A stretch of DNA of 64,000 nt from Octopus vulgaris (lineage: Eukaryota), in the NCBI GenBank assembly GCA_951406725.2, contig OX597829.1, positions 38,812,001 to 38,876,000 of the forward strand, in the 5' to 3' direction. Each line of letters begins with the position of its first letter. Positions within the stretch are counted from its first letter, which is position 1. Below are positions 22,268 to 61,987 of this stretch, piece after piece. Position numbers and translations under genes: made by a program. The notes under the pieces are model-generated. The model was not told the DNA's origin, searched no databases, and saw only the letters and a list, made by a program, of their open reading frames with translations.

Positions 22268-22965
22268 TACATACATATATACACACACACACACACACAT
22301 ATATATATATGTATATATATACAAACATACATACATACATACATAAATACATACATACATACATATATATATATATATATATATATATATATATATATAG
22401 TACGTTTAAATATTTGTTGTGCAAGATTTTTTATGTGAAGTCGTGTGTTGAAACAGATATTGTTATATTTCGGAATGGTCATATTGCCAGTTTAGCCAAA
22501 AGAACTTAGACGAAAGAACTTTGGCCGAAATAAGATTAAGATTAATGTAAAAAATAAATATCACTGAAGCAAAATAACACCAAATATATAGTGCGCGTGT
22601 TTTTATTGGCTAAACTGGCAATATGACCATTCCGAAATATAACAATATATATATATATATATGTATGTATGTATTTATGTATGTATGTATGTATGTTTGT
22701 ATATATATACATATATATATGTGTGTGTGTGTGTGTATATATATGTATGTATTAGGTTGGCAACTAAGTTCCTGCCGCTTTTCTAAATTTTGGAATTTAT
22801 TGCGTTTTTATATATATATATATATATATAAAATGATATGTTACATTTATTCAATAGTCAAGATAAAACTCTGAGTTTCAGACGCCATGGGTCCGTGAGC
22901 AGAATTATAACACAGTCATTTCCCTTTATATAACGGTATTTTTTCACAGCGTTTTTCAGATGGCC

Positions 22966-23028
22966 AGATAACCGAAGAGATGGTGTTGTGGATTTCCACT
23001 TCGGCATCTGAAACTCAGAGTTTTATCT
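22966..23028 (+). ncRNA. Type-I hammerhead ribozyme motif (CCGAAGA variant) in a PLE-type terminus 22833-23130
   Basis: AGAUAA-CCGAAGA-GAUG...CAUC(U)-GAAA-CUCAGAG-UU-UUAUCU. Confidence 0.75.
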
Positions 23029-23443
23029 TGACTATTGAGTAAATGTAACATATTATTTTATAGATAAATTTCCTCTATTTACATAATATTGAGGTCTCTT
23101 TCTTTCTTTTGTTATCTTACCGTTTTTACCAATATATATATATATATATATATATATAATATTAAATAAGAGACAAAACCACTATTAGGCAAATCAAACA
23201 ATGAAAGATTTAAGCCAATACATATGATTAATTTATATTATTTAAAAATGTAACAAAATTATTAAAAAATATAATTAATATATATATATAGGGTGGTGAA
23301 TACTCGTTATAAATATCACCACCAGTGGCCTAGCATGTATAAAAAGTCAATGTCTATTGTCTGTTGTATATATATATATATATATATATATATATATATA
23401 TATATATATACTTTATTTAAAGCAGCAGAAAATTCAACAAAAC

Positions 23444-23481
23444 CTGTTACTCTGAGTTTCCCGTTGCCGTTCATCGGACAG
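23444..23481 (-). ncRNA. Minimal hammerhead motif (CCGAUGA variant), left arm of a palindrome
   Basis: CUGU-CCGAUGA-aCG-GCAA-CGg-GAAA-CUCAGAG-UA-ACAG. Confidence 0.65.
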
Positions 23482-23497
23482 TTTTTGCTAGAAAAAA

Positions 23498-23534
23498 CTG
23501 TTCGATGAACGGCAACGGAAACTCAGAGTAACAG
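23498..23534 (+). ncRNA. Minimal hammerhead motif (UCGAUGA, mutated), right arm of the palindrome
   Basis: CUGU-UCGAUGA-aCG-GCAA-CG-GAAA-CUCAGAG-UA-ACAG. Confidence 0.55.
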
Positions 23535-24539
23535 GTTTTGTTGAATTTTCTACTGCTTTAAATAAAGCATATTATTCTACCATTGGTATTTGAGTACTCT
23601 TTTTTCCACTTTGTTTCACATTTATGTGTTTACTCCGGTATATATGTATATATACATACATGCACACATACATACATACATACATATATATATATATATA
23701 TATATATATATATATATACATACATATATATGTATATATACATACATATATATATGTATGTATATATACATACATACATGCATGCATGCATACATACATA
23801 CATACATACATACACACATACATACATACATACATATATATATATTTTTTTTTTTTAAATATAAATATATGAAAGAATGCAGTTTGCATATATATATATA
23901 TATGCACACCCATATACATACATACACTTACATGTATATAGTCTAAATACAAAGATAAAAGATTTGGAGTTTTTCTGAATATGTTTTTGATATAATGATA
24001 AAAAAATGAATCATCCACCAGATATTTGCAACTAAGGAAACTTATTTATATCATTTATATCGCATGTTGTGATATACAAATAGCAGAATATTATTACATA
24101 ATTTCATCTTCCATTTAACATTTGCGATACTGTCAGTTAGATACATTCTTGTGTAAATTTATGGAATTTCCATCTACAGACGTTGGAATTGTTGCCTTGC
24201 ATGGTAGTAATTGTTATCTTCATATTCAAGTGAAGTCAACTATGAAACTGTATGTGGGGATATTTTTTCCCAACTGAGTCACATTGCTTGACATCTTGGG
24301 CAAGTCTCTCCCATTATAGCTTTATGCATGTGTGAGGTAAACAGAAACTGAAAGAAGCCTGTTGCATATGTAAATATATTTGTGTATGTATCATCATCAT
24401 TGTTATTGCTTTTAATGTCCACACTCTTGAGTCATACCTTAAGCGCGCCTTTTAATTGTGAGCTTAGTATTATTGATAGGTAGACTCACACTTGAGATCA
24501 AAGCAAGATGCTAATGCAGAGGCCACACTGCAACATGAA

Positions 24540-58505: not shown

Positions 58506-58970
58506 AACCGATTGATATATATTAAAGATTATATTAAAACTATGTAAAGTGTGTGTATTTTCCATTTTTAAATTTCTTTTATATATATTACAACTCACCA
58601 CGTGGGGATATTTGAAATTCCTCCTTTTCTGTTACTACTACTACTATATATATATATATATATATATATATATATATATATATAATTAATATTAATATTA
58701 GAGAAGTTATTTCTGAGTTCACTGGAGAGAGAAGTTCAATTTAGTGGTTCTAAAATGAATTACTCACTGTATTATATACATATAAATAGATTGGTTTAAG
58801 AGACAGAATCACCCTCAAGCTACTCAATCATCATTGAATGACATTATCCACAATAGGTACATATAGGACTAAATGTTAAAATTATCAAAATTAATACCTA
58901 CGATTCTTATTCCAAATTATCAAAATTAATACCTTCAATTCTTATTGCAAATCATATACTTTACATTATT

Positions 58971-59075
58971 TAGACTATGCGCATTTCATGACAACATATT
59001 CCTCGATATTGCTGAAATAGAATGTTTCTATACAATACCATATTAATACAAATATATTGCCAATCTTCAGGTCTA
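58971..59075 (-). ncRNA. Hammerhead motif with long stem II
   Basis: UAGAC-CUGAAGA-uUGGCAAUAUAUU...AAUAUGUUGUCAu-GAAA-UGCGCA-UA-GUCUA; stem III AUGCGCAU is a perfect palindrome. Confidence 0.82.
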
Positions 59076-60018
59076 TCTTATATAAACTTATTTTGCTATT
59101 TACATCGTATATTAAGACATGACAAACTAAAATTATATAACTAGAAGTTGTTGGAATAATTTAACTTTAGTAAATGATGAACAGAAATGTGGAATAAAAG
59201 TAGGAAAAAGAAATGTTAGTAAAGAGAAATGTTAACTTATCTGTATGATAATTTTCTCTCCATGAATTAAACATGGCTACCAGCAATTGTACAATCCAAC
59301 ATTGAGAGCTATTTTGTAGGGGAGATAATTCTTATTAACATGTATTTTCTTAAAATGTATTTTCTATTATTTATAATAATAGTAAATCAGGAGAAGCCAG
59401 AAGTGAGTGTATGATAGGAATAGTCTAATTTTTTTTCTGGTTAATTTAATTTATTTTCATGTTAACTTTGATAAATAATAAATTTCTAGGTCAATTACTC
59501 AACATATAATTAAAAAATTTTTTTAATATTTTGAAATATGTTAAAGTCAGTAAAATTAGTAAAAATCAGTAAAAATCTAATTTTTTATTATTTTTATAAT
59601 TATAATACAATTAATATATATTGATTATACTATTATTCTTAAAATTGATGTTATTCTTAAACTTGAGTTTCTAAATTAAGATTAAAAGTTTAGAATAATA
59701 CCTCCTAATATTATACTATCGATTTTTATTAAGAAACTAAAATATCTGAAATTAGAAGTTAATTAAATATTATCTTACATTTATATATAAATAAGTAGAT
59801 TTATTCTAGTTATACTAAATGATAAAATATTATTATACATTATATCTAATTATTATGATTAAAATTTATTTGATTTAAAATTAGAACACCCACGTTTAAA
59901 TGAGAATGAATATTGCTTCTCAGTATCAATAAATATTACCTCTGTTCCTGATATATATATATATACTGAGAAGAAATCCTACAGAACAGATGTTATTTTA
60001 ACAAGATACATCTTGTGT

Positions 60019-60122
60019 TCACCTGAGGAGACACATCTACATTGATGGATGCACTTAAACCAGATGTTCAGTATCCAACCTGTGAGGGATCAATACTAGG
60101 TGGGTCAAAACAATTGTAGTAA
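60019..60122 (+). ncRNA. Hammerhead motif with G12A change (probably inactive)
   Basis: UCAC-CUGAGGA-GACACAUCUA...UAGGUGGGUC-AAAA-CAAUUG-UA-GUAA; followed by AATAAA and (TA)n. Confidence 0.7.
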
Positions 60123-60182
60123 TCAATAAAGATTCTTGTATCTTCCATCTTCTGTCTCTCTCATTAATCAAATATATATATA

Positions 60183-60935
60183 TGGTCTGATCAATAAGTA
60201 TTCAGTCTATTGCCATAGTAATGAAGCTAAAGCCCACAGAGTGAAGCTGTTTGGCACAGGTTGACCTTGAACTTTGCTGTGTATGTGCACTAAGTTTTAA
60301 CATTCTAGCTCACTTCCACTGTTTACAGCAGTGCTTGGAAGGAAGGTGTGTAGCATGTGATTGTCACATTGACCATGACAAAAAAAAGTTGAGCAGAGGT
60401 CTGCATCAAATTTTGGCAATACCTGCTAAGAGGCCAATACAAAGTTTTCAAAAAGTTTTCTCGTACAACGGAAACTTGAGTGTGGTTTTGGTCAGCTGAA
60501 AGCAGCTTTTGCAGAAAATGAGCAGACACAGGTCTCATACCCAAATCTTCAGGGATAATGGACTGAACTGAACCGTAAATAATTTGCATGTCCTCTGATA
60601 ACTCACAGATGGTGATTTGGCAATTTCCCCTCACAGCTGCACACATATCTGCGATATTTTTCTCAGTTCTGCTGGTTGCAGGTCTCTCAGAATGTTCATC
60701 ATTATCGACAATTTTTTGGCCATCTTGGAAACATCTCAATCACTTATACATTTGTGTGCGGCTCATATACTCCTTACTATATACTTTCTGCAACTTTGCA
60801 TAAGCTTCTGAGCAGGTATCACCATGACAACTTTCTCTATCATGGTCAATATGATGATCACATGTTACACACCTTCCTTCCAAGCACTGCTGTAAACAGC
60901 GGAAGTGAGCTAGAATGTTAAAACTTAGTGTGATT
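60183..60935. mobile_element. Rearranged mariner: two convergent 5' halves
   Basis: 60285-60380 is the inverse of 60838-60932; the minus strand encodes HTH pieces (AYAKLQKVY...MSRTQMY, DEHSERPATS, ITICELSE). Confidence 0.8.
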
Positions 60936-61987
60936 GCATTTATATACATGCATACTATTTGGTCACAGACACACACGCATTCACATGTGCACACACCATC
61001 TGAACAAGCACACATCAACTGCTACACACAACACACACACAATAGGCTCACTCACTACCATTCACACATTCACACTTACACACACCGTTCTCACATACAC
61101 ACACATGCTTACACACTTTAGTTCATTGGGGTCACATTACCTTTACTCCTATTATTATTACTATTATTATCTCCCTTTAATTCAACCTCTTTTTTTCCAG
61201 TCATCTCACCATGTTGGATCGTTGAACTCTGCACCTGTTTTCTCTCTCTGTTTTTTTTTTTCATTCCCTCTCCATTTTTTTTCCTCTTAATCCTTTCTGT
61301 CAAAGAGCATAGGCTTGAAATGTAAAGGACCTTTCAATTTTTCCCAAGCATTAAACTAATACACCTGCTTGTTCCAACACCTGTCTTCATCTTTTGTTTT
61401 CTGTAAATTTATGTATGTATGTATGTTGGTATGTATGTGTGCGTAGGTGTATGCATGTGTGTTTGAAGATGTGTATGATATCCTGGATGCAGTTCGTGTC
61501 TTTCCCTATTGAAAATGGTATGGAGTGATACAAGGAAAATTTATCTACTATTTCTAGCACACTGAATGACTGCATTCAGGTTCCAACTTTGGCTTGAGAA
61601 TGTCCTACTCATTGATGAATCTAGTTTGAGACAGTTTCACTTCTCAGTTGGAACCAATTCATTCTACTCATACCTTACACCTGTAAATCATCCAGGTGTT
61701 CTATGTCTGTCATCAACACTACCATCAACATAACATTCTCCCTTATAAAAATAAGGTTTCTAAAATGGAAGGAAAAATTCAAAGGATTTCTTTGTTCAAA
61801 TGGTTCAAATCCCAGAGACATTGTCTTGAAGGATTTTAGTCAAACAAATTGTATCCCAAAGGTTTTTTTTAAATCCAGCATTTACAGGTTATTAGTGAAG
61901 ATCCACTGTTGCAGAAAGAAATTATTTCATGTCCTCTGAAAGTTTCTAATATTCTTATTGTTTCAGTATATATGTATATATATAAAT

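Follow-up and report, generated by a model that had tools for sequence, protein, structure and literature searches.

Among the systems described so far, the minimal type-I hammerhead ribozymes of metazoan Penelope-like elements (PLEs) come closest to the motifs considered here. According to Cervera and de la Pena (2014, PMC4209133), these hammerheads sit on the sense strand in both pseudo-long terminal repeats (pseudo-LTRs) of the element, have a palindromic stem III and an extra base after A9, include a U3-A8 variant, and belong to many families per genome, mostly as solo motifs or inverted pairs. One of the published PLE hammerheads with a palindromic stem III is from an octopus (Hydra-1_oBim; PMC4209133; PMC8557442, File S2). 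Animal non-LTR retrozymes (PMC7229834; 10.64898/2026.07.22.740005) also carry type-I hammerheads, some of them dimer-dependent, and a section title has them reaching up to 120,000 copies in axolotl; they are, however, tandem arrays of 150-450 bp without open reading frames (ORFs), whereas our motifs belong to tails of ORF-bearing elements, standing solo or in inverted orientation. Our subject is a 64-kb stretch of Octopus vulgaris DNA (38812001-38876000 of contig OX597829.1, in an assembly of 2.80 Gb in 227 contigs; hereafter the window, with positions counted from its first letter), in which an original prediction had listed thirteen such motifs.

Very probably these motifs are minimal type-I hammerhead folds that lie in the pseudo-LTRs of PLEs, were spread by 5'-truncated insertion, and would cut RNA only as dimers, solo copies likely being inert. 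The thirteen sites were all located at the coordinates listed for them, and sort into nine repeat families (F1-F9, with F3b a sister of F3). The hammerhead layout was seen in family alignments (9-27 copies each) of F1, F2, F3, F3b, F4, F5, F7, F8 and F9. The families had been said to differ completely in their stems; F3 and F3b, however, have the same stem I. Six sites (22966+ and 23444-, both with U4C, and 38925+, 49400+, 49819- and 58971-) retain a usable core and all three stems, while six are decayed and one is a half site; the decayed sites belong to families whose remaining members mostly retain the fold. The six were picked by a relaxed descriptor (a core that is intact or family-type, with U4C or U6 allowed, plus stem I, stem II and a self-complementary stem III), and in the shuffled-control check 30 block-wise dinucleotide shuffles of the window led us to expect only 0.07. 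With a perfect core demanded there were four sites against 0.1 in shuffles, the other two being those with U4C; F4 deviates at position 6.

Sampling of the genome at forty 10-kb stretches placed at round-number positions (a 400-kb grid) gave 19 descriptor sites in 11 of the 40 loci, against 0.7 in shuffled sequence. This corresponds to a density of 46 per Mb for intact-looking motifs and to a genome total of about 128,000 (63,000-217,000 by bootstrap over loci), where PMC4209133 gives about 2,000-9,000 motifs per genome. Under a stricter descriptor, the grid held 10 canonical, three U6 and two U3-A8 sites and three others, one of which was rejected. A BLAST library of 20 real copies, eight of them from the grid itself, found 50 remnants in the grid, which scales to about 350,000 for the whole genome; in the window it found 16, of which one was dropped as a flank-only match. 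The window tally is thus 15 sites or remnants in 64 kb, six of them intact, roughly double what the grid averages (p 0.14 for intact motifs, 0.045 for all). The predicted density had been one motif per 5 kb; a motif or remnant occurs about every 4 kb in the window and about every 8 kb genome-wide.

That the folds come from PLEs, and from many families of them, is backed by the alignments and by the position of the motifs in pseudo-LTRs, a location shown for F4, F8 and a further family, F10, and likely for the others. The genome was searched with eight motif stretches (389-3,210 candidates each, 40 scored), and loci were fetched for comparison (L numbers below). F8 has 8,456 candidate relatives genome-wide, and in three of 10 fetched loci there is a 778-aa frame; in three loci the motif stands on both sides of the ORF, on the sense strand, at a distance of 2,862-2,863 nt. 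RW and DKT can be read by eye in the 778-aa frame, together with CxxC, CxH and a GIY-YIG domain at the C-terminus, and the unit is below 3 kb with a (TA)n target, all of which are traits of the Hydra-clade PLEs of Craig et al. (2021, PMC8557442). Unlike those elements F8 has an 8-nt stem III word, a 56-nt stem II, and, in its youngest subfamily, U4C with A17. The CxCx5C linker was not found in the 778-aa frame, in which the linker is without cysteines, and the protein has no Pfam match; since that linker is missing, we file F8 as a putative Hydra-clade-like PLE. F8 elements often have an inverted truncated partner and lie in (TA)n. That the long-stem motifs might be Naiad elements was rejected, for F8 only, as its endonuclease is C-terminal.

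F4 (39655+ and 61291+) is a PLE of another type. The end of a PLE ORF lies upstream of several copies, and stop-to-stop frames of 1,024-1,200 aa, in which DKG, a CX4CxxC linker and GIY-YIG with CCHH can be read by eye, occur in four of four fetched long loci (RVT_1 at E 1.6e-7 in a profile search, GIY-YIG below the cut-off). At locus L201 the element forms a triple tandem of 4.47-kb units that are 99.7% identical, with a motif in each pseudo-LTR. F4 is laid out like the Acropora Neptune example of PMC4209133. Both F4 and F8, then, have the motif in both pseudo-LTRs on the sense strand. In F10, for which the 3' end only is available, the motif lies about 220-280 nt past the stop codon, ahead of (TA)n, in three of three loci. 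F4 and F10 have the Neptune/Nematis traits (DKG, a CX2-5CxxC linker, C-terminal GIY-YIG with CCHH), which do not separate Neptune from Nematis. In the seven families tested, copies have a common 3' and a variable 5' extent, which is characteristic of truncated target-primed insertion. PLE-like truncation, inversion and (TA)n ends were found in F1, F2, F3, F3b, F5, F6, F7 and F9, and in one of 14 copies of F9 a Hydra-type endonuclease piece lies upstream; by these features F1, F2, F3, F3b, F5, F7 and F9 are likely 5'-truncated PLE tails. The elements had been thought mostly ORF-less, but in both families for which the source could be traced the ORFs are intact, the others showing the variable 5' and common 3' ends.

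The palindromic stem III had been taken to suit dimers, and the palindromy appears even when the search does not require it. A descriptor without that demand gave 19 sites in 464 kb against 0.73 in shuffled sequence; their inner stem III pairs are Watson-Crick in 35 of 42 cases, as opposed to 14 of 50 (28%) in shuffle matches (p about 1e-13, treating pairs as independent), and 12 of the 19 sites are fully palindromic. As a monomer the palindromic stem III is unstable: in 15 of 18 representatives the word folded as a hairpin is worth +0.4 to +6.0 kcal/mol and as a homoduplex -6.0 to -11.1 kcal/mol, and in the other three, with 4-nt words, a hairpin is impossible. This combination of hairpin cost and homoduplex gain fits the dimer model. 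In the established model of the double hammerhead, stem I too forms between the partners, so partner specificity needs stems I and III together. Applied to the octopus elements, transcription would read through tandem units of pseudo-LTR, ORF and pseudo-LTR, the stem III palindromes of two copies would pair with each other, and stem I would form between them too, copy A supplying the 5' strand and core, copy B the 3' strand and the cleavage site. Cutting, predicted to occur 3' of H17, would on the strength of the literature release unit-length element RNA from tandem transcripts. As cutting should take place only in dimers inside such transcripts, the solo copies of the window are likely inert. 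After insertion, copies undergo neutral decay, chiefly at CpG.

The stem III words had further been proposed as a possible family-specific code, which would mean selection against cross-dimerisation of co-transcribed families, and each motif was said to have a different one. As a strict code this fails, because words are common to unrelated families and to other phyla and only stems I and III in combination are specific. One 9-nt word is common to F1 and F2; other words are common to F4 and a relative with a canonical core, to F10 and a family with U3-A8, and to two families of the grid, while the words of F3 and F8 cross-pair. Among 306 ordered hetero-pairs of single copies, some of them decayed, 12 are compatible in stem III. 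The arms of the F1/F2 word recur in coral, sea-cucumber and Hydra elements, those of the F5 word match Hydra-1_oBim, and five Hydra magnipapillata families have a single word in common (all in PMC8557442, File S2, where the corresponding words are those of Hydra-clade elements). Some of the apparent variety has other sources: the words read at 33524- and 58971- reflect copy-level CpG decay of family words, and the 6-nt word originally listed is not that of 49819-, which has 8 nt. What speaks for a code is that sister families with a common stem I differ in their word yet stay palindromic, the word changing symmetrically (F3 and F3b; F7 with 8 nt and its sister with 6 nt), and that just one of the 306 hetero-pairs is compatible in both stems, this one being two F8 subfamilies within one lineage. 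Near-complete orthogonality of stems I and III is, however, also expected from drift alone, and the two main F8 words, which account for 58 and 31 of the first 100 matches listed of 1,248, differ at one central base and still cross-pair. We therefore consider selection for a code improbable; to judge from their distribution, the words look like slowly changing lineage traits kept self-complementary and not like unique tags.

Three further explanations of the population were weighed. That the motifs belong to ORF-less non-LTR retrozymes, with short tandem units and circular RNAs and mobilised in trans, would account for type-I hammerheads in short AT-rich copies, for F7 copies with just 19-89 nt in common upstream, and for the compact fold-back of F2, in which one junction is common to 204 exact matches; a link between retrozymes and PLEs is also in print (10.64898/2026.07.22.740005). 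The window, however, has no motif in a tandem array and no head-to-tail hammerhead array of 150-450 bp, the stems III are of the minimal PLE type, and the parents of F4, F8 and F10 carry ORFs, the tandem units of F4 and F8 being 4.5 and 2.9 kb. As for F2, other spacings occur among 1,065 motif matches, and inversions at many spacings fit repeated fold-back at truncation, so that we regard a retrozyme origin as quite unlikely. No better placed is the proposal that the scattered copies influence host expression by cleaving pre-mRNAs of the host, acting either in trans or as cis dimers within long introns. The density of intact-looking motifs and the one same-strand F1 pair with usable cores, 16 kb apart (22966+ and 38925+), would favor it, but half of the full-length window sites are decayed and CpG transitions occur on both strands (in 15 of 100 F4 words among the first listed), and for single PLE motifs cleavage was undetected, and for dimers low, in the published assays (PMC4209133). 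No host exon was identified in the window, where 10 + 57 open frames compared with Pfam returned transposon domains and two weak sub-threshold matches. That the motifs are chance matches in AT-rich repeats is scarcely credible. It is true that allowing any one core mismatch gave 13 matches in the window against 2.4 in shuffles, six of the 13 being one microsatellite cluster, and that a G3-C8 candidate (L148, 1271-) with a strong hairpin and 1,677 exact matches turned out to be chance, lying inside the frame of a LINE-like reverse transcriptase (RT). Yet the excess over shuffles in window and grid, the fixed place in the pseudo-LTRs of three different elements, and a palindromy that the search had not requested contradict this for F1-F5 and F7-F10, though not for the half site 44132-.

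Several observations weigh against hammerheads of PLE origin that cut as dimers. Within-family covariation in F8 was not significant, with 94.3% of cells paired compared to 93.6% when shuffled (a level reached by 26 of 500 shuffles), four doubly changed pairs (67 of 500) and a score matched by 103 of 500. Rfam gave no match at gathering score in nine sources, and no hammerhead among the 150 weak matches listed of 239, presumably because its models were not built for minimal or long-stem forms. At most sites the predicted monomer fold differs from the hammerhead fold. No source ORF was found for F1, F2, F3, F3b, F5, F6 and F7 within 1.5 kb of the fetched copies. Lastly, in one reconstituted PLE system insertion in vitro did not depend on hammerhead cleavage, and none of the reads terminated at the cut site (PMC11167929).

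A dense population, palindromes and a dimer model have all been described before; what the papers searched did not contain is the U6 core of F4, the A3-U8 core of F10 and stems II of such length. The F4 pattern, when positions 6 and 7 are left free, has 14,734 exact matches (control 0), and among the first 100 listed position 6 is U in 96, A in two, C in one and G in one, while position 7 is U in 46, A in 25, C in 18 and G in 11; these tallies and those that follow are hand counts, and the first 100 are the first places on contig C1 and not random draws. Leaving loop II free as well as positions 3-9 gives 17,772 exact matches, the first 100 of which have C3 in 100, U4 in 97, G5 in 99, U6 in 95, G8 in 96 and A9 in 100. 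Among the first 100 listed, position 17 is A in 74, U in 25, C in one and G in none, and the 4-nt word is intact in 84 and changed in CpG fashion in 15. The variation is thus mainly at N7 and H17, which a hammerhead leaves free, suggesting that the fold is still selected. The fetched intact tandem copies have U6 and U17. A natural change at position 6 has a precedent in phage Bcep176, in which an A6C variant is slow in Mg2+ and cuts well in Mn2+ (PMC3088659; PMC7151607), but that is one phage motif, whereas U6 is fixed here in at least 17,772 copies of a dimer-type motif. Given that A6C slows cleavage in Mg2+, the A6U core of F4 is predicted to be slow or non-cutting; U6 is also predicted to let the monomer adopt another, rod-like fold in which the core is tied up.

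The 3-8 pair is Watson-Crick, being C-G, U-A or A-U in separate families. The A3-U8 core of F10 has 468 exact matches, with A3 in 98 of the first 100 listed and U8 in all of these. A family 72% identical to it carries U3-A8 there (443 exact matches, including all of the first 100 listed), although its word is that of F10. This family, which is of Neptune/Nematis type and was met at locus L197 (3818-3856), also has an additional A ahead of stem III, in the purine run, fixed in the 443 matches, and its many intact 753-aa frames suggest that it is young. By comparison, all 56 motifs of Fig. S3 in PMC4209133 have A6 and C3 or U3, and the octopus motifs are set further apart by stem II lengths of 56-85 nt and by words of 8-9 nt, both of which are common here. 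Five more U3-A8 motifs with differing stems (L128, 2073+; L133, 8363-; L057, 2489+; L085, 1190+; L193, 3247+) probably represent additional families.

No report of a U6 family, an A3-U8 family or stems II of 56-85 nt was found in the literature searched, most subscription papers, Lunse et al. among them, being outside it. That paper, by Lunse, Weinberg and Breaker (RNA Biol 14:1499), is said by its title to concern small hammerhead variants that are numerous, PLE-associated, and cleave as dimers. It and the supplements of other papers may already list octopus motifs or U6 or A3-U8 cores. In the text of PMC7151607 'A6U' is absent, and the main text of PMC13282606 is without 'ribozyme' or 'hammerhead'. 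Why PLEs keep hammerheads at all is a fair question, as cleavage is weak in vitro (PMC4209133) and dispensable for insertion in the reconstituted system (PMC11167929), and F4, in which A6U is fixed, tandem masters are intact and copies number in the tens of thousands, is a natural test of it. Conceivably, although we would not wager on it, the still-spreading F4 keeps its fold under selection while fixing U6, and its motif acts either as a slowed ribozyme gated by metal or protein or as a non-cutting scaffold for dimerisation, in which case F4 and the A3-U8, U3-A8 and long-stem families would form a natural library of unreported cores that tests the need of PLEs for cleavage. The long-stem and variant-core families also mean that genomic hammerheads are undercounted by standard descriptors and Rfam.

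Within the window the sites are distributed as follows, with bounds counted by hand. The F1 fold at 22966-23028 (+) has U4C, a 31-nt stem II, the 9-nt word and U17 in a PLE-like 3' tail that ends at (TA)n; its inverted, 5'-truncated partner at 22830-22886 (-), of which the right half only is left, is one of two remnants absent from the original prediction, the other being at 58505-58587 (+). F2 follows at 23444-23481 (-), with U4C, a 10-nt stem II, the F1 word and another stem I, and its second arm at 23498-23534 (+), decayed by C3U, makes with it a fold-back insert in (TA)n. Over 121 nt the insert folds at -92.5 kcal/mol (57 bp, z -19), and the region 23405-23645 is predicted to form a near-perfect hairpin; if transcribed, its double-stranded RNA might be targeted by small RNAs or A-to-I editing. 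F3 at 33524-33623 (-) has an intact core, U.U at 10.1/11.1 and a 70-75-nt stem II, with a stem I mismatch and a word mutated by CpG decay, and the second F1 fold, on the same strand as the first at 38925-38987 (+), has a canonical core and C17. An F4 solo pseudo-LTR of the Neptune/Nematis-type PLE spans 39529-39796 (+), and its motif (39655-39692, +) has the family-wide U6 and a 4-nt stem III broken at CpG; an older F4 copy at 61291-61329 (+) is decayed, with G8A and a broken word. F5 at 42563-42626 (-) is decayed by G8A and has a 9-nt word. The F6 half site at 44132-44160 (-), which lies between the arms of an inverted repeat (43981-44281) and consists of the right half alone, has no full-length relative among the loci fetched and so stays a candidate hammerhead.

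F7 at 49400-49442 (+) has a canonical core, a 14-nt stem II, an 8-nt word and A17. Next to it lies the 5'-truncated Hydra-clade PLE of F8 (49660-50857, -), comprising the 3' part of a broken ORF (50110-50848), the 3' untranslated region and a pseudo-LTR with the motif (49819-49905, -; 56-nt stem II, C17). Contigs of four runs, whose status as RNA is guessed and which as contigs cannot show ends or levels, cover the F8 element. In run X4 the contig depth was about 7,800-8,700 over the pseudo-LTR hammerhead bins of locus L024 (2122-2232 and 4897-5007) and 12-64 over most of the ORF, a peak that could reflect abundant motif-bearing RNA. The F10 fragment at 57928-58587 (+), from the thumb and linker of a Neptune/Nematis-type PLE, runs, across a deletion, into what is left of a motif of the A3-U8 family, its right half (about 58505-58520, +). 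F3b at 58971-59075 (-) has a canonical core, U.U at 10.1/11.1, a 76-nt stem II and an 8-nt word. In the window (58760-59174) and at L196 (3689-4205), F3b tails lie on the opposite strand directly behind Neptune/Nematis-type elements, probably by nesting in common (TA)n targets. F9 at 60018-60123 (+; listed as 60019+) is decayed by G12A and has a stem II of about 77 nt and an 8-nt word.

The window is otherwise AT-rich, with many microsatellites, long interspersed element (LINE) pieces and repeats resembling short interspersed elements, and 51% of it matches other fetched loci. Broken LINE RT frames (RVT_1) and transposase-like pieces, including a mariner-like transposase (DDE_3, Transposase_1), occur at 10742-12738, 19176-21058, 21095-22106, 30520-31303 and 60323-60739. 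A candidate host exon at 55014-55172 (-) was rejected, as its sole match was to the tail of a single, apparently chimeric protein, the rest of which is absent from the window. The stretch 55014-55220 (-) resembles the tail of protein P0001 and, weakly, a low-scoring STPR cluster, and we take it to be a Helitron-like remnant. At 8447-9942 there are about 250 degenerate copies of a telomere-like hexamer, with 70% matches, in a chromosome-internal position.

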